DNA of 64,000 nucleotides from Mobula hypostoma (GCF_963921235.1 NC_086108.1:56546001-56610000), one strand, 5' to 3'. Shown: positions 11,311 through 59,314, counted from the stretch's first letter. The notes: a model not told the origin generated them from the letters alone. Program-made: numbers and translations.

Positions 11311-11903
11311 TTTATCCAATGGAGAGATCACAATTTTTGCCAAGTTCTTTCTCATTAATAAGCATGACTCCAGGGTTTACTGTTCAACTAATTCTGCTGT
11401 AAAACCAGGACAAAGAACAGGAACTTGGTCAGTTTTCTAGTCTTAATAGCACAAATATCCTCAAAACCTTACAACAGGCAACTCAAAATGTATAGAGGCC
11501 CCCAAATATTAAGGGAAAAATGGACATAGCAACAGCTAAACTTCAGTGTGTTGACAAAAGCAAAATTAAGATCAGCACAAATTCCAGAGCACAATTTTCC
11601 AAGCATATTAATATCACCATCAGGTCACAAGTCAGCATTAACATCAATCACCAGTTTATAAACCACAGTGGCTCAACTGCAAGGCAAATTTGGGGAGAAG
11701 TGAAACTTAAGGTTAGAGTTATGAGTTGTGAGCATGTTATGTTGGTGCTGGAAGTGTAGCAACACTTATGGAATGGCCAACATGGCCCTCACAGGTTTTC
11801 ACTGTATGCTTTTATGTACATGCAACAAATAAAGCTAAACTTTCTTTTACAAAGTCTCAGTCACATTTAAAAGCCTTTATTATTCCAGCACATGACTATC
11901 TGA

Positions 11904-12153
11904 GCAACACACATCGAAGTTGCTGGTGAACGCAGCAGGCCAGGCAGCATCTCTAGGAAGAGGTACAGTCAACGTTTCAGGCCGAGACCCTTCGTCAGGA
12001 CTAACTGAAGGAAGAGTTAGTAAAAGATTTGAAATCTCGGCCTGAAACATCGACTGTACCTCTTCCTAGAGATGCTGCCTGGCCTGCTGCGTTCACCAGC
12101 AACTTCGATGTGTGTTGCTTGAAGTTCCAGCATCTGCAGAATTCCTGTTGTTT
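11904..12153. mobile_element. Fold-back mini-PLE (inverted pLTR pair) with a hammerhead on the minus strand
   Basis: Arms gcaacacacatcgaag...ccgaga and tctcgg...tgtgttgc are inverted copies. TSD-like acatgactatctga (11890-903) / acatgaccatctaa (12154-67). Confidence 0.88.
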
Positions 12154-12334
12154 ACATGACCATCTAACCTGGTCATACAACACTAATCAAACTTTGAGCC
12201 TGCAAGACTTTGAATAGAGCTATAAAAAAAATTGCAGAATGCCTCACACTGTATAATCCACTACATACTTGTATTTATAGAAAAAGATTTCTGAACTCTG
12301 AAGATAACAAATCCGTCATTAATGTTTTCATAAA

Positions 12335-12700
12335 ACAGCCCGCATAATCAAAGACACCCTCCACACCAGACACCCTCTCTTCCAACAAACAGCAGATACA
12401 AAAGCCTGAAAGCAGAGCACCAGGCTAAAGAACAGCTTCTATGCCATTATAAACTGATTAAATAATTCCTTTATATGATAAATTGGAGTCTCAACCTCAC
12501 AATCTAACTCATTATGATCTTGCACCTAATTGTTTAGCTGCAATGCACTCTCTCTGAAGCTGCTACCCTATTCTGGATAGTTATCGTTTTACCTTGTTTT
12601 GCCTCAATACACTATGTAACGACCTGATCTGTGTCAACAATATGCAAGGCAATCTTTTCACTATCTTGGTACATGCATGTGACAATTATAAACCAATTCC
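12335..12700 (+). mobile_element. Old Rex1/L2-like LINE 3' fragment
   Basis: Remnant of the ..IIKD..HP..LF..GRRYKSLKA..RLKNSF.. terminus and a typical 3' UTR ending gacaattataaaccaattcc. Confidence 0.6.
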
Positions 12701-12959
12701 AATTATTGCTGCAAGAGGAAAGGATGCAACATATTGCACGTACAATGTTTGCAGATTGACAGCAAAATGGCAATACTTAGTGATATTCAAAAAATTATCC
12801 AAGTAGTCAACAATCAATCACAAATTGCATCTATACACCAAGATGAAAACCAAGTTGTATTTTTGGTGTTACAGAAGCATCCCAAGGAGTTTCACTGGAA
12901 TATTTTGAATAAAATTAATATCAGAATGTTATTTTTGAAATAAAGAGGGCATGAATAAG

Positions 12960-13730
12960 GACTAACAGAGACTCCTTCGCTTGCAGCTCTGGAAACAGCT
13001 CTACTTCTAACTTTAATATCTCTATTTTTCCTTTTCAGGGTTCTTTTAAAGACCCTAACCTGGAGTTATACACTGACTTTGGTTCTTTGCGGGAATGGGA
13101 CTGTTCTCAGGGTCTCACGACTGGCCATTATTCGATATACCAAGGACCTGGCCTAGAAGAATACCTAGACGAGGTTGCCTTTGGAGTTTCTTGATTTTGT
13201 GGCTCTGGAGGCTGGTGGATTCAAGGTCGGTGCCTCTGCAGGAAATCGGTGTGCCATGGGAGAAGGAAGATCTTTGGCTGTGTGCTTGGAGACCCGAGTT
13301 CTTTGGGCACAGAGCTCGGAAAAAGTGATGCAACTGACTTTTAACATTGTAAATCAGTGAGTTGTTTATTATGTCTCTCCTCTCGCTGTGAAACAGAGGC
13401 ACCTCTTTTTCCCTTATTAGGGAGAGAGAGAGCCTGTGGTGTGTTGAATTACCGGGTGAATGAGTAGTCTGGGATAATGCAAATCTGTGTTTTTATTGCA
13501 AGCTTGAGTGTTCGGTGGGGGGCACTGATGCTTTTTTTTTGCTGGTGGGGGAGGGGGGATCGTTGCTTTGCTGATGCCTATTGTGGGTGGAGGCTTTGGG
13601 GTTCTAACATTTAACTGTCATTCATTCTTTGGGACACTCGTCCATTTTCGTGGATGGTTGTGAAGAAAAAGAATTTCAGGCTGTATATTGTATACACTTC
13701 CCTGACATTAAATGTACCTTTGAAACCTCT
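12960..13730 (+). repeat. Unclassified interspersed repeat, probably a non-autonomous retroposon
   Basis: GC-richer block ending in a LINE-like tail gacattaaatgtacctttgaaac; no coding remnant recognised. Confidence 0.4.
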
Positions 13731-14309
13731 GAAGTTCAGAGACAATTCTAGACCATTTAGCCCTGGTATGTGAAAACAGTTACTGATGTTCCAGCAAGTA
13801 CATTTGATGTGGCCAGAACTGATGTAGTTCAATGTCAACGAGATAGGGAATGGGAAAACAAGGATTTTAAGATAAGGATCCAGCTTTTGAAAGCCAAGAT
13901 ATTGCTTCAACAGAAGTTGATGTACATCAGATAGAAAAGGCAAACTGATTTGGAGCAGGTTGGGACATGGGCCGGTCAAGTTTTAGTGTATAGAATGTGG
14001 GATGTGAACAAAAAGCAGTTGTAACAGTAAGATCTAAAAAGTAAAAATTTCATAGAAGGTTTTAGAAGACAAGCCAGCCCAAAGTTAGAGTCACAAAATG
14101 AAGAATTTTAAAATTGTGCTATTCAGCTATAGAGAAACCATATTTAACCTTGAACGCAATCTCATTCCTGAATATTTACTCAATATACATCAGGTAACAA
14201 GATCTATAAACAAGCAAAATTGAATATTATGCATGCATTCAATTTGAAAAGTTAGAGTACTAATACATTTAAAAAATATTAACAATATGAATAAAGTCTT
14301 AAGTTTCCA

Positions 14310-14910
14310 GCCAGCTACAGGTATAGACTTTAAACCAATGTTTTGATGACAAACTCTGCCATCTTCATCAGCGATGATGACTAGGTATGTCTAGTCTGGT
14401 GGTATAGTCCACCTCTCCTGTTGAATGAGGACTAACCAGACAGGTTTCCGCTGTCCCGCTTGTTTACAATCAATTCCAGTTCTTAGTGCAAGACCATTGA
14501 CTTTATTAAAATTCTTTTCCTGTAGTTTTATTTCAATAGCTTCCTTCACCAAGCCGTCCCAAAAACCCATTGGCGTGGCACAGCAGTTTTGTGCCGAACT
14601 CAATCCTACAGCAATTACGAATGCAAAACTACTGTGCCACGCCAATGGGTTTTGGGACCACTCGGTGAAGGAAGCCATTGAAATTAAACTGGAGGACAAG
14701 AATTTTAACAAAGATGAAGTTCTCACGCCAAGAACCGGAATTTGATTGTAAACAAGGTGGGACAGTGGAAACCTGATAGGATGAGGACTAACCAATCAGG
14801 AGGGGAATATTATGGGGTATATATACCATCAGACTAGACATGCCCAGACATTATCCCTGATGAAGATGACAGTTTGCTATCAAAACGTCAGTTGAAATTG
14901 ATACTTTTCA
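14310..14910. mobile_element. Palindromic PLE derivative (second PLE family): two inverted copies of the GIY-YIG C-terminus + pLTR
   Basis: ORFs 14391..14795(-) and 14425..14745(+) both end in FWD..VKEAIEIKL..KNFNK. Centre ggcgtggcacagcagttttg / caaaactactgtgccacgcc. CTGATGA boxes in both arms (14857 on +, about 14370 on -). Confidence 0.85.
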
Positions 14911-15074
14911 CCAGCTTCCAGCTGGGTACGAATTTATTTGTTGTATACGGCAGGAGAGTACAAGATCCTTTTTCATATTGCCAACATTTAAGTCTCTACT
15001 CATGTTTAAAAATTAGTTCTAAGATTGACCAACAATGTTTTTGGTGAGAAACAGAATATTGCATTATTACATAA

Positions 15075-16365: not shown

Positions 16366-16435
16366 GTCATTACAAAAATATTGCAAAAACCCTAACATAT
16401 ATGAGCAATATGTGAAAGTTTTCTCAATACATTTA

Positions 16436-17612
16436 TAGTAGCATGCAAAAGTTTGGGCACCCCGGTCAAAATTTCTGTTACTGTGAATAGCTGAGCAAGT
16501 AAAAGATGAACTGATTTCCAAAAGGCATAAAGTTAGAGATGACACATTTCTTTAATATTTTAAGCAAGAAAACTCTTTTTATTTCCATCTTTTACAGTTT
16601 CAAAATAACAGAAAAGGAAAAGGGCCGAAGCAAAAGTTTGGGCACCCTGCATGGCAGTACTTAGTAACACCCCCTTTGGCAAGTATCACAGCTTGTAAAT
16701 GCTTTTTATAGCCAGCTAGGAGTCTTTCAATTCTTGTTTCTGGAATTTTCGCCCATTCTTCCTTGCAAAAGGCTTCTAGTTCTGTGAGATTCTTGGGCTG
16801 TCTTGCATGCACTGTTTTTTTGAGGTCTATCCACAGATTCTTGATGATGTTTAGGTCAGGGCACTGTGAGGCCCATGGCAAAACCTTCAGTTTGCGCCTC
16901 TTGAGGTAGTCCATCGTGGATTTTGAGGTGTGTTTAGGTTCATTATCCTGTTGTAGAAGGCATCCTCTTTTCATCTTCACCTGTTTTTTTTTTACAGACG
17001 GTGTGATGTTTGCTTCCAGAATTTGCTGGTATTTAATTGAATTCATTCTTCCCTCTACCAGTAAACGCTCCCCGTGCCACTGGCTGCAACACAAGCCCAA
17101 AGCATGATCGATCCACCCCCGTGCTTAACAGTTGGAGAGGGGTTCGTTTCATGAAATTCTGCACCCTTTTTTCTCCAAACATACCTTTGCTCACTGCGGC
17201 CAAAAAGTTCTATTTTAAATCCATCAGTCCACAGGACTTGTTTCCAAAATGCATCAGGCTTGTTTAGATGTTCCTTTGAACCTTTTGAATAGAACACCCA
17301 AGGAAGAATGGGTAAAAATTCCCCAAACAAGAACTGAAAGACTTAGCTGGCTATAAAAAGCGTTGACATGCTGTGATACCTGCCAAAGGGGATGTTACTA
17401 AGTACTGCCATGCAGGGTTCGGGCCCTTTTCCCTTTTTGTTATTGTGAAACTGTAAAAGATGGAAATAAAAAAGTTTTCTTGATTAAAATATTAAAGAAT
17501 GGTGTCATCTTTAACTTTATGCCTTTTGGAAATCAGTTCATCTTTTACTCGCTTACCTATTCACAGTAACAGAAATTTTGACCAGGGGTGCCCAAACTTT
17601 TGCATGCTACTG
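16436..17612 (-). mobile_element. Tc1/mariner (DD34E) DNA transposon, defective
   Basis: TA TSDs at 16434-35 and 17613-14; TIR (c/t)agtagcatgcaaaagtttgggcacccc. Transposase fragments WKQVLWTDGFKIELFG, KHGGGSIMLWAC, QQDNEPKH, WASQCPDLNIIKNLW (catalytic E replaced by K), with a frameshift. Confidence 0.95.
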
Positions 17613-17971
17613 TATTTTTAACTGAGAAACTAAATAAGTTAATTATCACTCAGCTCATGATATCATACACCCACCTTGCCAGCACAGTTCTTTTAATTTT
17701 TTTTTACAACAGAAAATCAGGTAGAAGATTGTGGTAGAAGGACTCTGGTTAAAACAACTGTATGCTCTCATCAATTGGCCAATCTTACCTACAAAGCAAG
17801 ACTATTTTTAAACACAGAACTGAATAAACTCAAATTTTGAGAAATAAAACCTTGCAAGGATGTAATATTGCATAGCTAATTTGCTGATTATGTATTTATC
17901 TTATAGAAGTTGGAAGTATGAAACATGTGGTTTTAACATTATTAAATAAATTAAATTTTGATGTTACTTAC

Positions 17972-22530: not shown

Positions 22531-22984
22531 CGAGATAGAGAAAACAGGGGGATTAAAAAAGTAAGAAAACTAAGTATAAAGGAGCGGGGTTTGAAAGTAG
22601 GATATCGAAGCAGTACAAGAGAGTGAGGAAAAGGGGATGGACAAGATTAGGTGCCCACGTATGTGCGTATTTGTGTGTGTGCGGTTCGAAGTGCACAGGC
22701 TGGTTTCCTGTCGATTTCAACCTCTGCCATTGGACCAAGCCCTTATAGTCAAAACTGTGGTACCGAGTGTACAACCATCACTCAAGGTTCATAAAATAAA
22801 ATACAGATACTTCTCAAGACTGGAAACAGAAACAAGTCATAGAGCCACATAAAACAGCGAAATAGGCCCATTGGTACACTGTACTCATGCTGACCTTCAA
22901 GCACCCTTTTACCAGCATTTGGTGTGTGGCTTTCCTTGCCTTGCTCCTGAGGGAACTACCTAATATGAATATTAGGGTCATAAG

Positions 22985-23290
22985 CACAAGAGATTCTGGA
23001 AATCCAACGTAATACACACAAAATGCCGGAGGAACTGAGCAGGTCAGACAGCACCTATGAAGAGGAAATAAAAAGTCCATGTATTGGGTGGAGATCCTTC
23101 ACTAGGACCAGGAAGGAAGGGTGAAGAAGCCAGAATAAAAAGGTGGGGGAGAGCAAGAAGTACAAGCTAGTAGGAGATAGTTGAAGCCACGTGAGAGGGA
23201 ACTTGGGTAGATGGGGGAAGGGTGGTGAAATGAGCTGGGTGGCGATAGGTGGAAAAGTTAAAGGGCTGAAGAAGAAGGAATCTTAGGAGA
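22985..23290 (-). mobile_element. Old PLE pLTR/3' UTR fragment
   Basis: ggaggaactgagcaggtcagacagcacctatg... pLTR motif with a decayed hammerhead, followed by a purine-rich UTR. Confidence 0.75.
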
Positions 23291-23294
23291 AACC

Positions 23295-24720
23295 GTTGGG
23301 CATCAGAGCAGAATTAGGCCACTCAGCAGGTCTGCTCTGCCATTCCATCATCGCTGACTTATTATCCCTCTCAACCCTGTTCTGCCTTTTCCTGTAACCT
23401 TTGATGCCGTGACTAATCAATAACGTAGCAACTCTTTAACCATACTCAATAACCTAGCCTCTAAAGCCATCTGTGGCAATGAATTCCACACAATCACCAC
23501 CCTCTGGCTAAAGAAATAACTCATTATCTCTGTTCCATATGGATGTCCCTCTGTTCTAAGCCTGTGCCCACTGGTCCTAGACTCACCCATTTTAGGAAGC
23601 ATCCACACTACCTAGGCCTTTCAATAAGATCTCTCCCCCTCCCACTCATTCTTCTAAGCTCCAGCGAGTACAGGCCCAGAGCCATCTAATGTTCCTTATG
23701 TGTTAACCCTTTCATTCACAAACTCATTCTTGTAAACCACCTCTGTACCCTGTCCAAGTGCAGTCTGACCAGTGCCTTATCAAGCCTCAGAATCACATCC
23801 TTGATCTTATATACTAACCCTCTTGAAATGAGAGCTAACATTGCATTTACTTTACTTACTACTGACTCAACCTGCACCCATGCCTGAGGCTGCTTAACAA
23901 TATAAGAGGCCATGGTATTACAGGAAAGTTAGAAGCATGAATAGAAGATTGGCAGGAGGACAACAGTGAGAATAAAGGGGGCCTATTCTGGTTGGTTGCT
24001 GGTGACTAGTGGTTTTCTGCAAGGGTTGGTAAAGGTGTAGAAAATAGTCTACACCTTTATTCCTTCTACCAGAGTGCATGACCATACAGTTCACTACACT
24101 ATATTCCACTTGTCACTTTGTCCATTCCCCTTGTCTGTCTCGGTCCTTCTACTTCCTCAACACTACCTCCAAACTTGGCCACAAAGCCATCAATTCTGTC
24201 ATCCAGTTCATACATACTGTATAATGTGAAAAGAAGCTGTCCTAATACTGACCCCTCCAGAACACCACTAGTCACCAGCAGCCAGCCAGAATAGGCCCCT
24301 TTATTCCCACTGTTGGCCTTCTGCCAATCTTCTATCCATCCTTCTATATTTCCTGTAATACCATGGCCCCTTATCTTGTTCAGCAGCCTCAGGTATGCTA
24401 CCTTGCCAAAGGCCTTCTGAGAATCCAAGTAAACAACACCCACTGACTCTCCTTTGTCTATCCTGCCTGTTATTCCAACAGATTTATTAGGAAAGATTTC
24501 CTCTAAAGGAAACCATGCTGACTTTGGCCTTCTTTATCACAAGTATTCAATTTATCATGCCTACAAGTATCCCAAAACATCTTTCCAACCAACCAGTGAA
24601 GTCAGGCTAACTGACCTATAATTTCCTTATAGTGATTCTTGAAAGATAATTATCAATGTCTCCACAATCCCTTCAGCTACCTCATTCTGAACCCTGGGAT
24701 ATACTCCATTTGGCCTTTTT
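23295..24720 (-). mobile_element. Degenerate CR1 LINE (RT + 3' UTR)
   Basis: ORF 24099..24443 VVYLDSQKAFGKV..RLLNKIRGHGI..VTSGVLEGSVLG; FFSQRVVIVWNSLP. Confidence 0.9.
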
Positions 24721-24734
24721 CTTATTGTTAATGT

Positions 24735-29035: not shown

Positions 29036-30102
29036 AAATTTAACAACTACGACAGCTTAATTTGTTGCATTCTCCCACAAGCGAAATAGGGAATTTTCAA
29101 TAGCAGGCCTTGACAAAACAAACATTCATACTAACTTAATATCTTGAAGGTGCTTTTTCCAGTTCTAATTAGGGATATTTTCAGTATATAATTTGAGACT
29201 AACCACAGCACTAGATTATTTTTGAAGTGTCCTTTTTGTGGTATACAATTTTCTTTGGTAACAGCATTGGAGAGTTTACTTTAGAATCATAACCAAAAAT
29301 AATGACTGGGAAGGTGGTTCAATTGTTACAGTTGGGAAGGTGAAAGGTATCGAAAATTTTCAGAGACGTTGTAATGGCTTCTCTAGTTTTTATTATTGGC
29401 TTCTGAATGAATCTGCGCCAGTAACTTTTAAAGCATCTCAGTATGAGATTACTCAGGTGATTTAGAAACCTTATTTTACCCTGTATTTCAAGGCAATCAG
29501 CAACCTCATCACATTCACTTTGTGACTGCTTTCCAAAGCTTTTGTGGGATGTTGTGAAGGCAGTGATGCAGTTCAGCATTCATGAGGGATTCAAAACTTG
29601 TGTCATTATGTTTATTTGGTTAATTTTGCAAAGAACAGCATTTCTGAATGCTGCCAAACCATTTTGTTTCTGAATTCTCTGTGGCAGTTGGGAACCAAAG
29701 GGAAATTCATGGCATATTGCTCTATTTTTCTGAATATGGATCTCAGTGTTTTTAATTTCAGAAAGCTTTGAAAATTTTCTGTTAAAGGTTTCAAAAAGGT
29801 ACAATTTGGCTTGCCTAGACTCCATAGATGATTTTGTTGTTATATTCTGCCACTCACTCTACATCAGATAATTTCGTCAGCATTTTCAGCATTTCTGACT
29901 TTGCACTTATCCTTTGCATTAAAGCTTACAAGAAAAGCTATTGCTTTACTAATTTTAAAATTTCCATACAATGGGTCTGTTATTTGCTGAAGCTAAGGCA
30001 CCTCCTTAACTACAATTATGAATAATTGTACTTTTCAGGAATAAAAATAGAAATTGCTAGAAAATAAGTCTGAAATTCAGTCAACATCAGTGGAAATAGA
30101 AA

Positions 30103-30299
30103 CACAAAATAATCTGCAGATGCTGGGGTCAAAGCAACACTCACAACACGCTGGAGGAACTCAGCAGGTCGGGCAGCATCCATGGAAAAGATCGGTCGAC
30201 GTTTCGGGCCGGAACCTGACGAAGGGTTCCGGCCCAAAACGTCAATCGATCTTTTCCACAGATGCTGCCCAACCTACTGAGTTCCTCCAGCGTGTTGTG
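30103..30299. mobile_element. Fold-back mini-PLE (third pLTR family)
   Basis: Inverted arms around 30210-30225; perfect 14-bp TSD AGTGGAAATAGAAA (30089-102 / 30300-13); CTGACGA at 30216-22. Confidence 0.9.
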
Positions 30300-32974
30300 A
30301 GTGGAAATAGAAATTGTTCAAGTTTCAGATGTGGAATTACACCAGGCCTGTGAAAGAGAAAAATAAATCAGTGAGGATAGCAGCAAACAAGGGACTTTAG
30401 CATTAACTATTTCTCTTTGCACAAATGTTGCCAGACCTGCAGAGTTTTTCTGTCATTTTATGCTTTGTATCATATTGACTCTTTTTTAAAATCCTACTCA
30501 CATAAATCTGGCCACTGGGTAGTTCCCACAACCTTACCCATTGTAAAGACCAAAAGCTTAATTTGGCAGTAGCTGCTCCCATTAAGCCAATTTGACTCAC
30601 CCTATCACAACTATTTTCCTTTTTTTCTGTACATAGCTATCCTAACTTCTCTCCCTTGAAAACCTAACTCATACCTCTCTCATTCCCAGTTACAACAAAG
30701 GATTGAAGACCAGAATGTTGACTTTATCTATTTACAGACACTGCCTGGACTGCTAAGCTTTTCCAAGATATTCCATTTTTATTTCTGATCTCCAGCATCT
30801 ACAGTTATTTTGATTTTCATTTTTTATGGTGGTGTATCTCATTTAGAGATTTTTCTAGAAGGATTAACAACACAGCTGAAATCACTTAACAACAAAACTT
30901 TTATTTATAGGATACTTTTTGAAGGGTTGTTTTTTATATGTTGATGAAATAACAGTTTCAGTATTCAATTTAAAATCATGTTTAATATCTAGAGTTTCAT
31001 CACGTCATTTCGTTATTTTCAAATTCGTTTGTGATACTTTGTGGTTTGGTGTTATTTTTAGCACATATAATTAGAAGAAAAGCATTCTGGAGGATAGAAG
31101 AGTACTGCGAAATATCGGAGATGATGAAGAATCACATATTCAAGTACATTTTCAAATTACAAGGGAAAAGCATGAAATTTTAGGTCTTAATTTGAATAGT
31201 TAGGCAGTTAAATCATCAAGAAGCATACAAGAAAAGTTTTCAGAAACTTGATCCACAAATAACCATGGCAATATTTATTTAATGTATAAGGATTGCAATT
31301 TGTCTACCAATATGTCCTTCTGCATTTCATAATCTGGTAAACTTTCAGCATCTTTGGATATTTTGCAACGTGGACCACAAATTAACTACTTCAGTGAATT
31401 TCATAATATTTAATAGAATTTGAACTCACAATTGCTAGTTAACTGCTATCAAAACAATTACAACCACCCTTTCAATGGTTGAAACTTGTCATGTAGAAAA
31501 ACCTATGGAGTGTAGTCAGGAGATATCTGGGTTAATATTGATTAGGAGGAAACTCTTAGAATATCGACCAATGGACATATTGAGATTCAGTCTTGATGCA
31601 GTCTTTTCAAGGACGTAACTGGTTCTGAGTTCAAACTGTAGAGCAGCATCGCTGAGCCTGTGAAGTGTCTCTCCCTCCAAAAGGTGCATCTTTTAAGATC
31701 CCTTCAGAGTTGACACTTAGGGAAGCCCCCAAAATGGGCTAGCAACAAAAGGTAAACATCAATGACAATTGCTTTGTGCTGATCAATCCTCCAGTTTTCT
31801 CTGTAATTTAGCCTTAATGTTCCACACACAAGGTAATATATTTAAGTTTCTTAACAATTGTTTATAATGAACACTTACATTAGCTGTTATGCCTAGATAG
31901 ATTTTATAGTTAAACACATCCATTCCCACAGCCTTTTGCAGCTTAAGTTGTCCATAGCTTCTAGTCCTCAGGATCACACAATAATGAAGTAGAATCATAA
32001 AAATATTACAGCACATAAAAAGGCCATTCAATATAATTCCATTATTCAATATAATTCCATCATCCATCACTTGATCTGTAGCCATGTAGGTCACAGTTCT
32101 CCAAGAATGGGATGAGGATTTACCCTCACCTACCTTCTAATCCTCTGTACCCTCCCCAGTGCACTCACAATTTTCCTACAATTTGATTAGCAGAATTGTT
32201 AGAACAAAGTCATAGTCACCAGTTTTATTTATGTTGTACACATTACATTTTATGCCTCAGATAATTAAAAATGCACCCCATATCCCTTTTTAACCACATT
32301 TTTGATCAGTGCTGATACTTTTAGTCCCTTTCGATTTTGCATATCTTTCAATATCGTCCTACTTAATGTGTCTTCCCCTGCCATATTGAACTTCCTCAGT
32401 GTATTACCACACTACTATGTGTTAAATTCCTTTTTTAACTTCCTGCAGATCTAGTCCTTAGGTTACAGTCTGCATCCTATGTTCACCAATAGGAGAAGCA
32501 CACACATAAATCCAGTCTCTTGCTAGATCAGGCTCCAGCCAATATAGCCCCATTTTCATGTATTGTTTATTTTTCCTATCTGTTTGATAGAAAAAGTGCT
32601 TCTAGACCGTGTAAAATAGTATGTTTTATATTTAGAGGGATTTTTTCTGCAAAGTTATCAGCCATTAATATTGGGATGGTATTGAGAAGCTCAAATCCAG
32701 TCATTGAGAGTGTACAGAAACGGTTGAAGGAGCAGACCCCTTCACCAACTACCTACTCACCAGCCCAAGTAGCAGAACTAACAACTATGCCATCTATTTT
32801 CCCGTGGATCTAACGATTGCCAATGGCCAATATCCTTTTATTTCAGCCAGTAGCTTGCTTTTTTTGAAATAAGGGTGCCTCTTTTCTCCTTGCTTTCTGT
32901 CTAGATTCTAGAATGCATCATAGTGCCCTCATGATTCGATATGGACAAAGTTGACCCCAAAGTTTATTATAGAA

Positions 32975-33450
32975 CGAGAGATTCTGGAGATGCTAGAAAT
33001 CCAAAGTAACATTTACAAAATGCTGGAGGAATTCAACAGATCAGGCAGCATCTATGGAAAGGAATAAAGAGTTGACGTTTTGAGCCAAGAACCTTCATCA
33101 GGACTGTGAAGGAAGGGGGAAAATCAGAATAAGAAGATGAGGAGGAGGGGACAGAGTACAAGCTGGGAGGTGATAGAGGGAAAAGGTAAAGGTTTGAATA
33201 AGAAGTAATTGGATAAGAGAGGAGAGTGTACCATGGGAGAAGGGGAAAGAGGAGGAACAACAGAGGGAACTGATAGGCAGGTGAGGAGAAGAGAAAGGGT
33301 AAGGGGGAGCCAGAATGAGAAGTGTAACAAGAAAATGAGGAAGGGGAGGAAATTACCCAATGTTCAAGAAATGAATGTACATGCCGTTAGGTTGGAGGCT
33401 ACCCAGACCGAATATGAGGTGTTGCTCCTCCAATGTGAAAGTGACCTCAT
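32975..33450 (-). mobile_element. PLE 3' end (pLTR + UTR + end of GIY-YIG)
   Basis: Minus strand reads cagtc-CTGATGA-aggtcttggctc-AAAA-cgtc; EEQHLIFGLGSLQPNG-like terminus near 33380-33430. Confidence 0.82.
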
Positions 33451-48119: not shown

Positions 48120-51100
48120 AGGGATTCCTTTCAGACTGACATGGAAAATATACTGAAGAGTAAGGAAATATGGAGAAATCAAACAAATATTTTATGTGTC
48201 TTCAAGTAAGAAGGGCAAAAAAAGCTCCAGAAATCGTGGGGATGATACATCTAAAGTGAATGAGGATCTCAAAGAGATTAGTGCTTATACAAAGTATCGG
48301 AAAAATTGATGGGATTGAAAACAGTTGGCTGTGGAGAGAGTGAAAGCAGTGTCTGTCATTTTGGTAAATTCCATGCACTCCAAAATGGTTCCCAGAGAGT
48401 AGAAGGTAGCAAATATAACCACACCATTACAGAAAGGAAATAAACCACACACTAGTTAAATTGATTGGGCACTTAGAAAATACTCCCAGGATTGGACAAT
48501 ACAAGCATGGATTTCTGAAAGGAAGTCATATTTGACAAAAGATAATGTGTTGGAGATGGTTTACATAGCTTGGCAGGGATTTAGAACTTGAAAAGAATCA
48601 GAAGGGAGAAGAGCTAAAATGGAAATTAGAAAGGCAAGGAGAAGGCAATCATGCAGGAAATGATAGGGATAACACTAACCTGAGTACATTGGGAAAGAAC
48701 AGAGTGCACACATATGAGTACATGAGAGTACAAATTGAGGACGAGTTCATTGCATACTTCCAGGATGGTTTCCGAGAGCAAGGCACTAAGGAGACAGCCA
48801 GTGGGCAGGCTATTTTGATCTGTTATTATGTAATGAACCAGTGTTAATTGATGATCTTTTAGTAAAGGATCCCCTTGAAAAAGGTGACCATAGCATGGTA
48901 GAATTTCAAAATCAATTTGAAGGTTAGAAATTTCAGTTTAAAATGGTTGCCTGGATTAAGGGCAGTTATATCGATTTGAGTATGGAAATATCCAAAGAGG
49001 ACAAAAATAGAATGAAGAGTAAGATTCAAGGTTCAGGATTGTTTAGTGTTATTTCCTGTATACAAGAGTAAAGGAGAACAAAATAATTGTTACTCCAAAT
49101 CTAATGCAACACAAGAAAAAAAAACACATAAGATAAAGAATCAGAATCAGGTTTAATCTCAACGGTATATGTCATGAAATGTGTTAACTTTGCAGCAGCA
49201 GTACTCCATAATTCACACTACATGATAATATAGAAAAACCGAATTATGGTAAGTATATATGTATATTAAATAGTTAAATTTAATAAGAAGTGCAAAAACA
49301 GAAATAAAAAAGTAGTGAGGTAGTGTTCATGGGTTCAATGTCCATTCAGAAATCAGATGGCAGAGGGGAAGAAGCTGTTTCTGAATTGCTGAGTGTGTGC
49401 CTTCAGGTTTCTGTACCTCCTTCCTGATGGTATCAATGAAGAGAGGGCATGGCCTGGGAGGTGGGGGTGCTTAATGATAGACACCACCTTTTTGAAGCAC
49501 AATCCCTTGAAGATATCTTGGATACTATGGAGGTCAGTGCCTATGATGAAGCTGAGCAATTTTACAACTCGCTGCAGCTTACTTCGATTCTGTGCAGTAG
49601 CCCCCCAACACCTCCACAGTATATCTGTAGAAATTTGTAAAGTACACAATCAGCTCTTTGGTCTTACTGATGTTGTTGAATGCAAAGTTGTTGCTCTGAC
49701 ACCACTCAACTAGCTGGTATATCTCACTCCTGTACACCCTCTTGTCACCATCTGATATTTGCCAACTATGGTTGTATCATCAGCAAATTTATAGATGGCA
49801 TTTGAGCTATGCCTAGCAAAGCATTCACGAGTACAGAGAGAGTAGAGCAGTAGGCTAAGCACACATCCCTGACGCACGCCAGTATTAATTGCCACTAAGG
49901 TGTAGATGATATTACCAATCTGCACAGATGGTGGTTTTCCGTCTAGGAAGGTGGGGATCCAGTTGCAGACGGAGCTACAGAGGCCCAGGTTCTGTAGCTT
50001 TTCAATCAGGCCTGTAGGAATGATGGTTTTAAATGCTGAGCTATAGTCAATAAACAGTATCCTGACACAGGTATTTGTATTGTCCAGGTGATCAAAGACC
50101 ATGTGGAGAGCCATTGAAATTGTGTGCACCATAGACCTATTGTGGCGACAGGCAAATTGCAGTGGGTCCAGATCCTTGGTGAGACAGAAATAGATTCTAG
50201 CCATGACCAACCTCTCAAAGCATTTCATCACCATAGATGTGAGTGCTACTGGACAAGAGTTGTTAAGGCAGCTCACACTACTCTTCTTGGGCACAGGTAT
50301 AATTATTGACCTTTAGAAACAGGTGGGAACTTCAGTCTCTCTTCAATGTCTTCAATCTCTCAATACAATAATAGGAACATAATAATAATCACAATAAATA
50401 TAAAGATGTAAAATTATATATATAGATTGATTGTATATCCATAAAGTGATGGCTCGATATTTTTGAATCCGTTGGTCCTGAGGTGGACGCTACAAAGCCT
50501 CCCTTCTGATGGGAGTGGGACAAACAGTCCATAAACAGGGTGGGTGGGATCCTTCATGATGTCACTGGCCCTTTTCCTGCACCTTTCTGTCCTTGATGGT
50601 GTGTAGGCTGGTGCCAGTGATGCGTTGGGCAGTTTTAGCTACCCATTGCAGAGCCTTCCTGTCTGCCGCAGTGCAGCTTTGTATCAAGCAGTGATGTAGC
50701 ATGTTCGGGTACTCTCTACTGTGCATCTGTAGAGTGCTGTGAATATGGATGTCATTGTCCAGATCACTTCAGCCTCCTCAGAAAGTAGAGCTTGCCTGAC
50801 TGATCAACTGTGAAAGGCATTTCACAAATTCCAGCAAAGGTATATTCTAGTAAGAAAAGCTAATTGAGAAGGATGAACTATCAGATGATATCAAATTGAA
50901 AGAAAAAAAAACTAAGATTAATGGAAAGAGAGAGGGTAGATAAAGCAAACATTGGTCCTTTAAAGACTGCGACTGAGGAATTAATAATGAGAAATAGAGA
51001 AATGGCAGTGATTTTAAAATATTACTTTCAATATCTCAAAATATCCCAACAACGATAGACATCGAGGGATTAGAGGGAAGGAGGAATTTAAAACAATCCT

Positions 51101-52270: not shown

Positions 52271-52593
52271 AATTATCCTAACATTCTGTATAATCCTGGA
52301 AGGCAATTCAGGTTGAAATGTCATCTGACTATTCAACCATAAAGTAAAATACCAAGAACTATTGATAAGGCACACATTAATTAAATGTTGATCTTAACCT
52401 ACCCTCCATACTCCAGTTGAGTGGGTTCTGTTGACTGATGACCATTTATCCCAACCCGGATTTTATTTGGATTTTGAAGCTGCTGTGCAACTAGTTTTCC
52501 AACTTCACCATGAATGCAGTACCTATTTTCCTGGGTATCACCTTTGAAAAAGAGTAAAGCAACACATTTGCAACACATTCACCTTCTACACAG

Positions 52594-52820
52594 CAACATA
52601 CATCAAAGTTGCTGGTGAACGCAGCAGGCCAGGCAGCATCTATAGGAAGAGGCGCAGTCGACGTTTCAGGCCGAGACCCTTCGTCAGGACTAACTGACGA
52701 AGGGTCTCGGCCTGAAACGTCGACTGCGCCTCTTCCTATAGATGCTGCCTGGCCTGCTGCGTTCACCAGCAACTTTGATGTATGTTGCTTGAATTTCCAG
52801 CATCTGCAGAATTCCTGTTG
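52594..52820. mobile_element. Perfect fold-back mini-PLE with hammerhead cores on both strands
   Basis: 95-bp perfect inverted repeat (52593-687 / 52694-788) with a 6-nt loop; 16-bp perfect TSD TTCACCTTCTACACAG (52578-93 / 52821-36). Confidence 0.95.
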
Positions 52821-53683
52821 TTCACCTTCTACACAGGATATCTTTCGTCTTTGGTCAATCAAAAGTAATGCTGTTTGCTTCATAGAGTAAAAAGGGAGTT
52901 CACAATGACAGTGCTCATTTCCTTAGCACCTTTACAATAAGGGAATGTTCAATATTACAATTAATGTGGATTTTGCTAGTGCCCTTACCCATGTTTCACT
53001 GGGGCTGGTTGTGGCGTTTAAGTCATTGTAGTCTTGTGCATTTTCCTTTGGGACTGAGGTTCAAGGGTTAAGTTGTAATCAAAAGTCAAAATGGAAAAAT
53101 ACTACCATTCCTCTGACATTAGAGTTACTTTATACTAGGTCTGCCTTGAGGCAATTTAGATGGAACTTATTGTGTTCCATGTGTGATCCAATAGACTTCA
53201 TTAAAAGGCCTGGGCAGCTCCACAGCAGAAAGTTTGACCTTTACAGACATAAAGTCAAATTGTAATCCAGTCGAAGGAATGGGGCAGACATCACCAATCC
53301 AGGAATCATATAGACATATTCACTCGCCAGAAAGTCTACTTCCTACCTAGAAATAGCAATAGATTAAAATGGTAGAATGTATTCAACCTTGAGGTTATTT
53401 GCATTATTCTGTCCTGAACCTTGTCCTCCGGTTTCATCTATTGTATTATTGCTTCCTGTAAGGACATGCAGTTTTCAAGCACAGCACAGACACTGGCATT
53501 TGCACTCATTAACCCACCCTGATAGTTTTCCCTCATCACACCCATCAGCTGCTCTACTTACCTCCTACAGAAGATGGCAGCAAAACCACACATTTGGCTG
53601 TATCAGTGAAATGTTAAATTGTCTTAGGCCTACATGCAATAGAGATTAAAAACTGATCTGCTGGCAGTCCTCTTTTTACTTAC

Positions 53684-54059: not shown

Positions 54060-56650
54060 GACACCAGAAACAGCAGATACTGGAATCTGGAGCAACACAT
54101 AATTTGCAGGAGGAACTCCACGGGTTGACCAGCACCGGTGGGAGGAAGAAATTAGTGTTGTTTCGGGTTGAATGTTTCAGGACTGAGAGTAGAAAGGCAA
54201 GATGGCCAGCATAGAGAGGAGAAGGAGGACTGTAAGAAAGGATTATAAAGTGATTGTTGTACTGAGTAGGGGTTTAAGATGGTAGGCAGGGAAGAGAGGT
54301 TTGCAGGGTAGCAGGTGAATGATGGAGACAGACAGAGGGAGAGTTTTTTAAAAAAAACAACAGATGGAACAAAATGGGTGGAGGTGAGTCTGAAGGTGGA
54401 AGACAGCTACTGGAGGGAGATAAACTGGAACACAAAATGCTATCAGGGTTGAACTTGGATAAGTGAAGGAGGTGACTGTTCGAAGTGAAGAGAGAGGTGA
54501 ATGAAAGTTGGAACAAGGTGGGGGGTGGGGGGAACATGTGTGTGAAGTGAGTGGACGGAGCCAGGAGGGGGAAGGGGGACAAACATAACAGGACCAGAGG
54601 ATCAGAAGGAGGAAGGAAGGAGAAAAGGGTGGGGGTGGTGAGAAGGGTTAAAAAAAAGGAGGGGAGGTACCTAAATTTGGAAAACTCAACATTCATGACA
54701 TTGGATAGTAGATTACCCAGGCGGAATATGAGATGAGATGGCTGTAGAGAAGGCCAAGGATGGACAGGTCAGTGTGCGAATGGAGTGGGATGCTGAAATA
54801 GTCTACAACTGGGACCACAAGATGACCATTGCAGACTGAGTGCAGATGTTCTGTGAAATGGTTGCTGAGTCTGCACTTGGTCTCACCACTGTAGAGAACG
54901 CCACATCAGGAGCACTAAATGCAGTAGACAGGGCTGGAGAAGATGCATATGAACCTTTGTCTCACCTGTAAGAACTATTAAGGTCCCTGGACAGTGGTGA
55001 GGGGGAAGTTGTAAAAACAAACGTACCATCTACTGTGAGGTCAGGGGTAAAGGAGGGACGGGTTGTGGAAGGATGAGTGGATCAGGAATCATGGAGCCAA
55101 TGGTCCCTTGGAAGTCAGAAAGGGGTGGGGAGGAGTAGTCATGGCTATTGGTGGATTGAGTTGCAGCTGGCGGAAATAATGTAGCATGCTGGATGCGGAG
55201 GCTCATTGAGTGAAACTGGTATACTAGGGGTACTCTATCTCTGTTCTCTCTGGGAAGAGGTGTGTTGACTGTTTGTATGAGAAACAAAGGAGATGCTCCT
55301 CCAAACACAGTAGAAGGCTGTGCTTCCTGAGAAAGGAGAACATTTCAGACGTCCTGGAAGAGAAAGCCTCTTGAGAACAGATGTAGCGGAGATGGAGAAT
55401 CTGGGAAAATGACATCCTTACAAGAACAGAATAGGAAGATGTGTAATCTAAGTGGCTGAGAGAGTCAGTGGTTTATGATAAACCTAGACGGATAGTTTAT
55501 CTTCTCAGATGGAGATAGTGAGATCTGGAAAAGGGAGAGAAGTGTCAGAAATGGTTCTCGTGAACTTAAGAGCAGAGTGGAAGTTGGCAAAAGTGATTAA
55601 ATTGATGAGCTCTGCATGGATGTAAGAGGCAGTGCCAATGCAGTCATCAGTTTAATGGAGAAAGAGTTGGGGAGTGGTACTGAAGAAGGTTTGAAACAGG
55701 AAGTGTTCCACGCAACCAACAAAAATACAGGGAAAGTTGGGGTTCATGTTTAATCCTTTAATTTGTAAAAGGAGAGCAGAGTCAAAAGAGAAATTGTTTA
55801 AGGTAAGGATATGTTCAGCCAGGTGGATGAGAGTATTAATGGGGGTGAACTGGTTTTATCCTTTTTGTAGTAAGAAATTTCTAGACCTTCCTGATTTGGG
55901 GTGGGGGGGGGGTGTAGGTAGAAGTGTATAAAGACTGGACCTCCATAGTGAAGATGAGGCATTGGGAGCCAGGAATCTGGGAGTTGTCCAAATGGTGGAG
56001 GGCATGCGAGGTGTCCTGGGTGTAGCTGGGAAGGGACTGCACAGAAAGAGACAGAATGGAGTTCAGGTATGAAGTACAGGCAGAAAAAATAATTTTGTGG
56101 ATCTTGGGTAACGGATAGAAGCAGGAAGTGTGATATTGAGGCACTATCAGATTACAGGCTGCAGAGGGGATTTCTCCCAATTTAATGAGATCCATGACAG
56201 TGTGGAGATGATGACCTGGCATTTATTGGTGAAGTCATCATTCATGGATTGGTAAGAGGAGGTATCAAGAGTTGTTACTTGGCTTCTCCAAGGTAAATGT
56301 CAGTCTGCCTGATGACAGTGCCACCTCCCCCCCCCGCCCCCGTCAGCGGGTTTGATAACTAGGTTGCGGTTGGTGTGCAGTAAGGACTGTGAACAGGTCA
56401 GCGTGGGAATAGGAAGAGAGTGGAAATGGTCTGCAACTGAGAACTCAGGTTTGTCATTGCGGGCTACAAGTAGGTGTTCTATGAAATAGTCTCAACGATG
56501 TAGAGAAGTTTACGTCGGGAGCATGGAATGCAGTAGGAAGGATTAGAGGAGATGTATTTGAGTGTTTACCTCACCTGGAAGGACTGTTTAGGTCCCTGGA
56601 TGATGGTGAGGGAGGTGGTGTAAAGACAAGTGTTAGATCTGTCCTTAATT
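54060..56650 (-). mobile_element. Long degenerate PLE (RT + GIY-YIG + pLTR)
   Basis: ORFs 55881..56222 FYPLPKIHK..YTQDTSHALH..IFTMEVQSLYTS, 55224..55415 FSQILHLRYICSQ, 55030..55308 NRDRVPLV, 54274 MNVEFSKFR; pLTR at about 54060-54190. Confidence 0.88.

Positions 56651-57050: not shown

Positions 57051-57086
<36 letters not shown>
57051..57086. repeat. (CA)18 microsatellite inside an unclassified minus-strand repeat (about 56940-57660)
   Basis: Direct reading. Confidence 0.95.
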
Positions 57087-57089
<3 letters not shown>

Positions 57090-57970
57090 CCCTGACCCCA
57101 TGAAAGGCCACCTGTGGGCCTCCAATCCTTGGCTTCAGACTTTGAACTTGCAACCACTTGTCCTCTGACCTCTGGACAAGCTGGGCTTTGAACCAGGCCT
57201 CCACCTCCGAACTTGTTGATTTCTGCCTTTGACCTTGGGGCATCTACCTCTGGACTCCCAGTGCTCTGGACTTTGACCCTTGGCTTTGTCCTCCAGACTT
57301 GACTGACCTCTGGGTACTGACTGCTGATCATGGGTTTGACTTTCAGGCTTCGATACCAGGACTTGTCAATCGTAGGCCTGGACTTCCAGGCTCACATAGT
57401 CCTCTAATGCTGGTGACCTGGGGAGTAACCAACCTCATGACTCCATATGGATCTCTGACCTGGGACTCACTGACCTGGGGGGGGGGGGCTGGGTCATTGA
57501 CATACAATTGTGGAGTATTCTGACTTGGATTCCGAAGACAGACTCCTAATCCTGACTCTTCATTTACTGCCATGACCCCTAACTCCCTCTTCTGTCCCCT
57601 AAACCATCACTACAAACCTACAAAACAACTTAAGTCTGAGCCATGACAACAGCACATGGCCAGTTTGATTTTTAGAACACATTGTCAAACACGTCTCTAT
57701 CCTTCCACCCTTCCATCATCTCTGCCAAGTTCCCTCTACTGTTTTTCTCCTCCACCCCACCTGTGTCATCTCTAACTCCATAGTCATTGGAACTGTGTCA
57801 ATACTTTCGGAATGTTAGGTCTACAGCTGTCAGATATAAGTCTTACACTGGCATACAAACATCTCTGAGTAACAGATTCTGCAACCATTTGGCATCCTCA
57901 GATTCTTGCGAACTATTTGGACAAGTTAAAAATGCAAAGCCGAGTGAGAGAAAGTAATATGATAATTTAC

Positions 57971-58051
57971 CTCTTTGATCCAATTAGTTCGTTTAAATAT
58001 TGCTTGAGGTTGTACTCTTGTTTTATCTCTGTAGTTAAATCCAGCAGCCAT
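57971..58051 (-). CDS. Putative first coding exon of the C1orf141-like gene (MAAGFNYRDKTRVQPQAIFKRTNWIKE); exon starts at 58065
   Basis: Acceptor ttttgctacag, ATG in strong Kozak context (aactATGG), 27 codons, donor GAG|gtaaat in phase 0. Confidence 0.55.
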
Positions 58052-58524
58052 AGTTTGGACCCTCCCTGTAGCAAAATTTAAGTAACATAAGCCTTCCAGG
58101 ACATAATAGACATATGTAGCTATAAACAGAAAATCTGTCTTTTGGGTAAATTGTTATATCAAGCTGACCCAAGTGAATAAATAAAGATCCCATGGCACTC
58201 TGTGAATAAGAATATGATAATTCTTCATGCCTTCCATCACAGCTAATGGAGGATTTCTGAATGCAAATCCGCGTATGTCTTCTCCATTACACTAGTGTCT
58301 ATACTTGACCACTACTTCACTGATTGTACAACAGTAAGTAATTTGTGTCTTTCAATGTAAAGGCAAGTTGCTTTTCATTTGAAAAGTCTAAGCAAATGAT
58401 CTTTTGCAGTAGTGTTTTTGGGCTAATGAAGCCTAGCCCCAAGTAACAGAGTGCATTTTTTTTCCCTAGACAGCTCAAGTCAACATCAAGTATTCTCAGC
58501 CATCAAGAGTACACTAATTAACAA

Positions 58525-58685
58525 ATCACACAAAATGCCGGAGGAACTCAGCAGTCCTGCTGAAGGGTCTCAGCCCAAACCATCAACTGTACTCTTTTCC
58601 ATGCGTGCTACCCGGCCTGCAGAGTTCCTCCGGTATTTTGTGTGTGTTGTTTGGATTTCCAGCATCTGCAGACTTTCCCTTGTTT
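58525..58685 (+). mobile_element. Older fold-back mini-PLE
   Basis: Short inverted arm cacacaaaatgccggaggaactc / gagttcctccggtattttgtgtg; 11-bp TSD CTAATTAACAA (58514-24 / 58686-96); decayed hammerhead (CTGCTGA). Confidence 0.85.
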
Positions 58686-59314
58686 CTAATTAACAACTGC
58701 CTTGACCCAAATGTAAATTATAATACAGCATGGTTTTGTTTGGTAGACATGTCAGTTCAGACGAACCAGATTTATTTTAAGTTAGCAACACAATTGTGAA
58801 TGGTGGAATTTAGATTCAAGATTGATTAATGTCATTTCCTGTACACAAGTGTAAGAAGAATGAAAAATATTAGGAATGTGGTGGGGATAATTTTAACCTA
58901 AATCAAACAGTAAAAATTCGAGAAGACTCATGATTAATGCACTGGTCAAAAATTTGGTCTATTTTCCCTAGCTCTTCACCCCATTTAATTTCAGCTTTCC
59001 TTTCCAACAGATTCCCATCTGGCCCATCCTTAAAATTATATTTCTCTTCAAACACTTCACCAACACTCTTACCTCATGCTCTCTGAGATAATTTTCTCCA
59101 TTAAATGTATCTCCTGCTCTCTATTACCACTAATTATCTGAGCATCCAAATTCACTGGATATTGTAAATAGTATCTTTATCACATATAGTAAGTATACCA
59201 TTTTCTTTTAATTCACTGCTGCAGTATGTTCTTTAAAAATGATTACCTTTGAAAAACATTTCCTATGCTTTGCACCTGAACTGGAGAGGGACTAATATCT
59301 TAGAGACTAATATC

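Follow-up and report, generated by a model that had tools for sequence, protein, structure and literature searches.

Four small inserts in the 64,000-nt stretch of Mobula hypostoma DNA analyzed here (the window) are best read, with somewhat better than even confidence, as 5'-truncated head-to-head PLE insertions that represent three subfamilies within a single lineage. Each is likely the one-time product of an autonomous element, formed by the joining of two target-primed cDNAs that likely stalled near the upstream edge of the hammerhead ribozyme. The head-to-head pLTR layout is already published for PLEs, and with an architecture that is ordinary for these elements, the remaining interest is mechanistic. 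Breakpoints are given relative to the C of CTGACGA (offset 0, window position 1232 in the parent element), with the scissile bond at +27/+28. The parent, the inserts (E1 to E4), and their apparent TSDs are located as follows.

1..1325, plus strand: parent element, subfamily A, the 3' portion of a putatively Neptune-like PLE.
1208..1243, plus strand: likely 3' splice site and overlapping predicted hairpin, both of putative function.
1227..1264, plus strand: complete minimal type I hammerhead of the parent, from a descriptor scan, of the kind treated in sections of PMC4209133.
11902-12153: whole E1 insert, inverted arm first and forward arm second.
11890..11901: left TSD of E1 (right copy 12154-12165), 12 bp with 1 mismatch.
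11902..12034, minus strand: E1 inverted tail-less arm, 131 nt, reaching -36, with a complete hammerhead with GUU, and TACTAAC.
12035..12153, plus strand: E1 forward arm of 119 nt, lacking the core and starting at +11, with a 35-nt tail and a junction microhomology of 0.
30103-30299, minus strand: whole E2 insert.
30089..30102: TSD of E2 (other copy 30300-30313), 14 bp, exact.
30103..30216, minus strand: E2 forward (tailed) arm, subfamily B, 114 nt from +9..+11, with a 39-nt tail.
30215..30299, plus strand: E2 inverted tail-less arm, 85 nt to -1..+1, with a 2-nt junction overlap.
52594-52820: whole E3 insert.
52578..52593: left TSD of E3 (right copy 52821-52836), 16 bp, exact.
52594..52697, minus strand: E3 inverted tail-less arm, 104 nt to -10..-6, with a complete hammerhead at 52687.
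52694..52820, plus strand: E3 forward arm, 127 nt from 0..+4, with a 33-nt tail and a 4-nt junction microhomology.
58525-58685: whole E4 insert.
58514..58524: left TSD of E4 (right copy 58686-58696), 11 bp, exact.
58525..58554, minus strand: E4 inverted tail-less arm, 30 nt, ending at +59..+62.
58552..58685, plus strand: E4 forward arm, subfamily C, 134 nt from -5..-2, with a mutated hammerhead core and a 41-nt tail.

As the preliminary description had reported, all four inserts place an inverted 5'-truncated pLTR beside a direct pLTR with an unpaired tail on one end only (35, 39, 33, and 41 nt in E1 to E4); the tail end is the terminus of one arm, and the other arm terminates 33 to 41 nt earlier. 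The proposed 11- to 16-bp TSDs also held up as apparent duplications, with scores of 9, 14, 16, and 11 (E1 to E4) that all exceed the best score (8) among 300 random flank pairs. Target end and element overlap by 2 to 5 nt at three of the four tail-less ends. Within each insert, both arms share the same subfamily variants, and the arms match each other at 94/94 positions in E3 and 82/84 in E1, where both differences fall at CpG; the E2 arms have 7 mutual differences, 5 of them CpG-type.

Arms of E1 to E4 are 92 to 98% identical to the 3' end of the parent, in agreement with the PLE origin claimed earlier; the several independent families claimed with it reduce to three subfamilies of one lineage, with E1 and E3 in a single subfamily (109/116 identical), E2 in subfamily B, and E4 in subfamily C. 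The parent differs from E3 at 2 positions per arm and from E1 at 6 to 9, and the E1 and E3 junctions are different. It runs from the C-terminal part of the RT through a C-x4-C-x2-C linker, a GIY-YIG endonuclease ending near 930 (Pfam PF01541, E 2.6e-05, 625-927), and a ~300-nt pyrimidine-rich spacer to the hammerhead and a tail-less 3' end, in an ORF interrupted by frameshifts and one stop. One Mobula hypostoma protein matches the parent at 92% over 101 aa. The RT portion in the window is C-terminal only and gave no Pfam match on 3-338; RT motifs are visible by eye in longer homologues. The linker also occurs in P0001, and a CX2-5CxxC linker between RT and EN is given as a Neptune clade feature in part of PMC8557442; on linker type, the parent appears Neptune-like. 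No clear GT donor is found at the ORF end of subfamily A, a point against the likely 3' splice site. In subfamily A, pLTR and tail share an open frame; it was considered as coding and, because it is lost in subfamily B, was not taken as such.

The parent hammerhead consists of helix I, CTGACGA at 1232, helix II, and GAAAC-GTC, with helix III absent and a predicted cut after 1259. By the minimal descriptor, only three complete hammerheads occur in the window (1232 plus, 52687 minus, and 11998 minus), with none in E2 or E4. Rfam returned no hammerhead family on the window, just miRNA-like hairpin matches below threshold, and the count of bare CTGANGA (50 versus 40.6 expected, equally high in 5 of 100 shuffles) is uninformative.

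Forward arms of the four inserts begin within 16 nt of one another, from -5 to +11 relative to CUGACGA. Under a smooth truncation model, this clustering has P values of 0.0001 to 0.025 over 12 settings, for a sample of four inserts chosen by eye and with a statistic picked after the data were seen; two weak loci from outside the window supplement the sample. Six of eight arm ends lie inside -10..+11, and seven of eight arms cross the GUC site intact, with none ending there. Ends of the inverted arms vary, from 36 nt upstream in E1 to about 60 nt downstream in E4. The earlier statement that junctions lie at or near the hammerhead is borne out for the forward arm in 4/4 inserts and not for the inverted arm of E1 (-36) or E4 (~+60), and the nonrandom clustering it proposed stands for forward-arm starts within the window. 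Breaks concentrate at the ribozyme's upstream edge and not at its cut site, probably because copying stalls there. We found no published report of such a hot spot at the ribozyme 5' edge in the open-access literature searched.

Sequence complementarity did not predict this position: weighting by exact microhomology and 12-mer duplex energies gave no hot spot there, and the best predicted cDNA-cDNA duplexes lie away from the observed junctions, which counts against the reading favored here. Summed inner microhomology is 9 nt over the four junctions (0, 2, 4, and 3; P 0.003 to 0.007), where the E2 and E4 values, including the 3-nt E4 overlap, use bases inferred from related copies; for E1 and E3 alone, whose parent is known, the excess has a P of 0.07.

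These features suggest an insertion scheme in which both nicked target strands would each prime one cDNA from two known start sites, on an RNA that was presumably uncleaved and unspliced. Both cDNAs would likely stall close to the upstream edge of the ribozyme and then be joined to each other via 0 to 4 nt of microhomology, possibly by end joining of the kind described for L1 twin priming. For a lizard PLE studied in vitro, parts of PMC11167929 report that cutting and extension take place on both strands of the target, that RT starts internally at two sites bracketing the tail, and that ribozyme cleavage is dispensable. The unpaired loop lies on the tail-less arm in E1 to E3 and on the tailed arm in E4, a difference compatible with two independent cDNAs and not with fold-back of a single cDNA. 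The E1 junction has no microhomology, which counts against microhomology joining.

The least certain step is what stops the RT. A predicted hairpin spanning -19..+11, in which the ribozyme core would be base-paired to a likely branch point, a pyrimidine tract, and an AG, is our tentative candidate for the stop hot spot, at odds a little short of even; splicing factors bound to the acceptor could give an equal outcome. A modified form of the earlier proposal, in which ribozyme structure would act on the switch point via the predicted competing hairpin or the likely 3' splice site at the ribozyme 5' edge, is plausible. Acceptor-like features include a branch-like TACTCAC (TACTAAC in E1), a pyrimidine tract, CAG at -9..-7, and TAG at -5..-3; the AG at -4/-3 is also part of helix I, so its conservation is no proof of an acceptor. 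In the Mobula predicted protein P0023, the family-A peptide begins at about -13 and the AG at -4/-3 is not used, while in P0025 it begins at -9..-6, consistent either with splicing to the CAG acceptor or with a break in the genomic copy at that point. A third candidate, P0026, was dropped as a chance repeat match (1/3 matches). In Penelope of D. virilis, according to part of PMC4209133, the intron runs up to the 5' end of helix I. The hairpin has a predicted energy of -10.5 kcal/mol (z -1.79, with 11 to 12 of 200 shuffles as good, which is borderline), is the most stable predicted 36-nt fold from the RT start to offset -540, and has a similar counterpart in 4/5 copies tested, being absent from the oldest. 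GAAGG can pair with any pyrimidine tract, which weakens the hairpin case.

A bolder version would make the hairpin a three-way switch that keeps the RNA unspliced and uncut, thereby selects the mobile template, and provides the RT stop that mass-produces 160- to 250-bp palindromic inserts in ray genomes. We regard this as rather improbable; if true, it would explain both intron retention and the apparent dispensability of the ribozyme.

Other PLE copies in the window include two tailed relatives and one older pair.

32972..33450, minus strand: related tailed copy, noninverted, with its 5' break within the ORF.
22980..23300, minus strand: related tailed copy, noninverted, with its 5' break in the pyrimidine spacer.
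~14329..14960, no strand assigned: older inverted PLE pair of a different clade, with its junction ~230 nt upstream of its own hammerhead and no convincing TSD.

The pair at 14329-14960 is a counterexample to a junction at the hammerhead. Five old relics found with nhmmer (an E range of 6e-10 to 2e-3, which also takes in a sixth at 54066-54226) do not enter the breakpoint counts, since their ends cannot be read. Scanning metagenome contigs and viral contigs for the pattern gave 0 loci.

Parent positions 601-1350 were also compared with contigs from 4 of 24 listed public sequencing runs; no run listed is on record as RNA, and X11 and X17 are guessed to be. In each of the four runs, summed depth rises 2.5- to 3.4-fold between bins 1201-1225 and 1226-1250, and among the left loose ends listed, the largest is "before 1228" (272 contigs in X1 and 226 in X5). 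Neither was counted as support, because depth is not copy number and also peaks at the ORF end, and because the loose-end consensus resembles the spacer of another subfamily. A lower depth ratio of putative RNA to DNA over 926-1225, which would fit an intron, is unusable since contig depth cannot rank parts, and a 905-1228 skip in contigs is not GT..AG.

Several other explanations were weighed against the stalled two-cDNA origin. The same origin without any special barrier would apply if PLE cDNAs typically reach ~120 to 130 nt and this is by chance the distance between the start sites and the hammerhead. For a Chlamys pair, the median length of de novo insertions is 128 bp (part of PMC9977147), canonical hammerheads are missing from most Chlamys according to a portion of PMC8557442, and the eight arms here have a median of 116.5 nt (log-sd 0.50, falling to 0.16 if the 30-nt arm is left out). 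However, four lengths within 20 nt under a log-normal with a median of 128 have P values of 0.056, 0.019, and 0.005 at sigma 0.2, 0.3, and 0.5, and other copies in the window extend hundreds of bases further, making a simple length limit unlikely.

We assign the same low probability to self-priming on an antisense RNA template, with endonuclease resolution leaving the tail on one side (Arkhipova et al. 2013). This was proposed for head-to-head palindromes (PMC3846280) and accounts for arm identity and intron retention, and on the antisense strand the E3 junction does coincide with a natural inverted repeat of 4 bp around a 6-nt loop. Against it, the geometry of E4 is opposite, the E1 junction has no pairing, target-element overlaps occur at tail-less ends, and in vitro RT starts map to both tail ends (part of PMC11167929).

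Slightly less probable still is run-off, in which RT, having started in the 5' pLTR of the transcript, copies as far as a processing boundary or RNA 5' end that lies a short way upstream of the ribozyme, or else a purging from introns of longer, acceptor-bearing arms. The promoter, 75-bp intron, and helix I of D. virilis Penelope lie close together (excerpts of PMC2377424 and PMC4209133), and acceptor-like sequence sits at the equivalent place here, yet the E1 inverted arm reaches -36 and retains branch point, tract, and AG, and foreign exon-1 sequence is present at 0/4 junctions.

The preliminary description had offered a self-propagating MITE-like or retrozyme-like class, transcribed and reinserted whole, which is very unlikely. 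Small size, terminal inverted arms, and TSDs fit this idea, as do an opposite-strand joint at 1229/1271 (depth 1673, in one contig of X17, a run guessed to be RNA), a candidate 1256-1217 joint (depth 181, X1), and the sufficiency of rotifer pLTRs in cis for mobilization (part of PMC3846280). Conversely, 0/6 insert pairs share a junction and every arm tracks its own subfamily, none of the four elements has two same-strand hammerheads, the E3 transcript is predicted to form a 94-bp duplex (-209 kcal/mol) that buries the motif, and neither DNA run has an opposite-strand joint among the best 15 of 326 joints, where the best X1 joints listed have depths of ~180 to 200 versus ~17 to 32 for the lowest-depth pieces, with saturated counts. 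MITEs have terminal inverted repeats reaching both ends and a fixed-length TSD from a DNA transposase; here, one end is an unpaired tail, and the TSD varies from 11 to 16 bp. With no shared junction, no same-strand hammerhead pair, and different junctions even in same-subfamily E1 and E3, the inserts fit neither retrozymes nor MITEs and are likely one-off products.

Hammerhead self-cleavage, suggested earlier as setting where RT switches template and weighed here as the maker of an RNA end where RT runs off, is the least credible of all: complete minimal hammerheads are present in subfamily A, but 7/8 arms cross the cut and 0/8 end at +28, which already contradicts self-cleavage as the source of the E1 to E4 breaks, and the relevant portions of the literature describe minimal motifs whose cleavage is weak and requires dimer formation (PMC4209133), catalytic mutants that insert normally, and no Anolis RNA-seq reads ending at the site (PMC11167929).

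How integration is completed, why introns are retained, and what the hammerhead does are treated as open for PLEs in sections of PMC11167929, PMC8557442, and PMC3846280. Two-armed inserts record both cDNA starts, both stops, and the target cut in ~200 bp, and a copy-rich genome could therefore test twin priming against antisense self-priming directly.

Among known systems, as far as the sections cited describe them, Pen2a_Av of Adineta vaga (PMC3846280; scheme in PMC8557442) shares with E1 to E4 a direct pLTR that meets an inverted, 5'-truncated one head-to-head, a one-sided 30- to 40-bp tail, a TSD, and a palindrome or overlap at the inverted junction. Unlike that unit, E1 to E4 have no ORF between the arms, total 160 to 250 bp, and, although formed in four independent events, have forward-arm starts that fall within a 16-nt span. 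Poseidon PAc of Anolis carolinensis (parts of PMC11167929) likewise has two RT starts bracketing the tail, which would explain the tailed and tail-less arms seen here, extends both strands, and does not need its hammerhead; it belongs to the Penelope/Poseidon clade, whereas the parent here has a Neptune-type linker, and its start sites are reported as nonhomologous to the cut DNA, whereas E1 to E4 show 2- to 5-nt overlaps; the sections cited contain no analysis of where its 5' junctions fall. Minimal hammerheads of metazoan PLEs are also type I without helix III, and in Schistosoma, hammerhead pairs lie 100 to 700 bp apart on opposite strands (portions of PMC4209133, which do not connect the motif with sites of truncation or inversion). 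Non-LTR retrozymes (bioRxiv 10.64898/2026.07.22.740005) are similarly small, noncoding, and pLTR derived with a type I hammerhead, but they form head-to-tail tandems with at least 2 complete same-strand hammerheads, whereas E1 to E4, arranged head-to-head, contain one complete motif at most. L1 twin priming (part of PMC10760644) provides a parallel for the proposed joining step, with two target primings, a microhomology join, and an inversion within one TSD. The inverted L1 piece is an upstream, nonoverlapping part, whereas the cDNAs of E1 to E4 would start almost at one place, so that their product is a palindrome.

Each of the four Penelope-like element (PLE) mini-inserts proposed in the preliminary description was present, and every one consisted of a tail-less inverted arm and a tailed forward arm within a target site duplication (TSD). 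Junctions are expressed as offsets from the C of CTGACGA (position 1232 in the parent element), with the hammerhead cut predicted at +27/+28.

Two-armed PLE inserts and their parent
1-1325 (+): parent, 3' part of a Neptune-like PLE, subfamily A
11902-12153: E1, subfamily A; tail 35 nt; TSD 12 bp (1 mismatch); inverted end -36, forward start +11
30103-30299 (-): E2, subfamily B; tail 39 nt; TSD 14 bp; inverted end -1 to +1, forward start +9 to +11
52594-52820: E3, subfamily A; tail 33 nt; TSD 16 bp; inverted end -10 to -6, forward start 0 to +4
58525-58685: E4, subfamily C; tail 41 nt; TSD 11 bp; inverted end +59 to +62, forward start -5 to -2

The TSDs proved real, scoring 9, 14, 16, and 11 compared to a best score of 8 among 300 random flank pairs. 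An origin from several PLE families had been proposed; E2 and E4 do represent two further subfamilies (~75 to 80% alike to the parent), but E1 and E3 belong to the parent's own. Arm-versus-arm identity within an insert was 94/94 in E3, 82/84 in E1 (both differences CpG), 68/75 in E2 (5 of 7 CpG-type), and 26/28 in E4. Because both arms of each insert carry the same private variants, each insertion event had one source. E1 to E4 are real inserts of an already described PLE type. The parent endonuclease (625-927) matched GIY-YIG in Pfam, and it was most similar to proteins of rays (92% to Mobula hypostoma, 76 to 85% to Hypanus sabinus), so this vertebrate DNA probably comes from a ray-like cartilaginous fish. 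The parent linker reads C-x4-C-x2-C, a type given as a Neptune feature in part of PMC8557442, and on this motif the parent appears Neptune-like.

The inserts likely formed from two cDNAs primed at both target ends. For Poseidon of Anolis carolinensis, a section of PMC11167929 reports that both target strands are cut and extended and that reverse transcription (RT) begins at two internal sites bracketing the tail; two cDNAs, one per start site and target end, would yield a tailed and a tail-less arm within one TSD. Target-element overlap at the tail-less end was 2 nt in E3, 4 nt in E2, and at most 5 nt in E4, and was not clear in E1. Inner-junction overlaps were 0, 2, 4, and 3 nt in E1 to E4 (sum 9, P = 0.003 to 0.007; E1 and E3 alone, P = 0.07). 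The tail-less arm supplied the unpaired loop in E1 to E3; in E4 it was the tailed arm that did. Palindrome formation via antisense self-priming, described in part of PMC3846280, remains a rival; two cDNAs are favored over self-fold-back because they allow both the tail in E1 to E3 and the stop in E4. Fold-back of a single cDNA was rejected, as the tail in E1 to E3 could not be added and the fixed stop in E4 was left without explanation.

Junctions had been placed at or near the hammerhead, which held for the forward starts (all four within 16 nt) but not for the inverted ends of E1 (-36) and E4 (+59 to +62); six of eight arm ends lay within -10 to +11. Forward-start clustering gave P values of 0.0001 to 0.025 under geometric truncation (means of 60 to 400 nt, with and without microhomology weighting, 12 settings) and 0.0015 to 0.056 under a log-normal length model centered on 128 nt, values that are optimistic because the elements were picked by eye and the statistic was chosen after the fact. 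The junction of a fifth inverted pair, from another PLE clade, lay ~230 nt upstream of its own hammerhead, and all three non-inverted relatives (23k, 33k, and 54k) reached far upstream.

Other features of the window
14329-14960: the fifth pair, old, from a second PLE clade that we take to be Poseidon-like; hammerhead motif at 14857, arms 76 to 84% alike and joined inside the endonuclease-coding region, with the loop supplied by the tail-less arm and without a convincing TSD
54066-56633 (-): long, decayed, rearranged PLE remnant keeping RT, endonuclease, pyrimidine spacer, decayed hammerhead, and tail
27615-27783, 30401-30460, 30680-30812, 34736-34844, 40254-40320: ancient pLTR relics (nhmmer E, 2.5e-06 to 2.3e-03; ends unreadable)
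16420-17629: Tc1/mariner-like DNA transposon remnant; inverted arms of ~340 bp (87%), DDE_3 match (E, 2e-08)
21897-22268 (-): probably the first coding exon of a gene, presumably resembling an SLC35D-type nucleotide-sugar transporter; no match in a Pfam search; E1 lies downstream on this strand, its complete hammerhead and acceptor-like signal sharing the exon's orientation
41737-42906 (-): 389-codon Ser/Lys/Glu-rich open frame, probably a large host exon; no match in a Pfam search
62521-62895: 70-bp tandem array, ~91% identity
63024-63315: degenerate repeat, ~72 bp
4042-4734, 23306-25597, 49140-50339, 60125-61826: decayed LINE remnants, by eye CR1-like plus other RT and endonuclease fragments

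PLE pieces also lie within predicted ray host proteins (P0023, P0025, P0003, and P0005; these include STARD3NL, a receptor-like protein, DIPK1C, and mucin-2 isoforms), which suggests exonisation or annotation artefacts. In two of three protein matches, family-A peptide in Mobula predicted proteins begins at about -13 (P0023) and at -9 to -6 (P0025); these exonised pieces, a biased sample, agree weakly with the forward-start clustering, and the P0025 start may reflect splicing rather than a genomic break. Searches of the open-access literature found no paper describing breakpoints that concentrate at the edge of the hammerhead.

A generic short cDNA length, with no ribozyme-edge effect, is a real alternative: excerpts report a median of 128 bp for Chlamys insertions (PMC9977147) and canonical hammerheads absent from most Chlamys (PMC8557442). 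That one hairpin switch links splicing, ribozyme, and RT stop seems unlikely. A hairpin predicted at -19 to +11 (-10.5 kcal/mol), which may account for the stops at the ribozyme edge, is the most stable predicted 36-nt RNA fold from the RT start to about -540; it would compete with the hammerhead, and it overlaps CAG (-9 to -7), a pyrimidine tract, and a heptamer resembling a branch point, which reads TACTAAC in E1 and TACTCAC in the parent. The C-to-A variant of this heptamer, at 1212, was common among run contigs. In Drosophila virilis Penelope, the intron end coincides with the helix I 5' end (parts of PMC4209133 and PMC2377424), and P0025 is consistent with phase-1 splicing into -6. P0003 ends with residues beyond the usual last codon, which hints that another subfamily has a donor where its ORF ends. 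The hairpin had a z of -1.8 against shuffles (11 to 12 of 200 as good) and was missing in one of five copies tested, P0023 did not use the acceptor, subfamily A had no clear donor, and the best predicted cDNA duplexes were not at the observed junctions. Among the joints listed, one at 905-1228, which skips the whole pyrimidine spacer and is not GT..AG, occurred in both runs guessed to be RNA and in neither DNA run.

The idea of a self-propagating class was not supported: none of the six insert pairs, including same-subfamily E1 and E3, shared a junction. The E3 transcript is predicted to fold into a 94-bp duplex. Sequencing-run joints were surveyed against parent 601-1350 in contigs of 4 of 24 listed runs, with counts saturated and palindromes assembling badly; no opposite-strand joint from either DNA run was in the best 15 of 326. 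In DNA run X1, the strongest joints among those listed had depths of ~180 to 200 versus 17 to 32 for the lowest-depth pieces. Both observations speak against subfamily A having a fixed junction at high copy number. One opposite-strand joint, at 1229/1271 (depth 1673), was listed from a single contig of X17, a run guessed to be RNA.

Self-cleavage or ribozyme structure had been suggested to set the junction. Seven of eight arms crossed the GUC site, the eighth ended 30 nt short, and none ended there; therefore, the template was uncut, in agreement with a section of PMC11167929 in which insertion of the Anolis element proceeded as usual despite catalytic mutations and none of the RNA-seq reads had an end at the cut site.

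Retrozymes carry at least two complete same-strand hammerheads (two being the criterion in part of bioRxiv 10.64898/2026.07.22.740005), whereas none of E1 to E4 does, and that assignment was rejected. Inner overlaps resemble those of L1 twin priming, a model called unvalidated in part of the review PMC10760644. Among published accounts, seen as excerpts, hammerhead pairs on opposite strands lie 100 to 700 bp apart (PMC4209133) and inverted pLTRs and short extensions are listed as standard (PMC8969392). The layout of E1 to E4 is that of the known PLE unit, an inverted truncated pLTR with a one-sided 30- to 40-bp tail, a TSD, and a junction palindrome (PMC3846280, PMC8557442).
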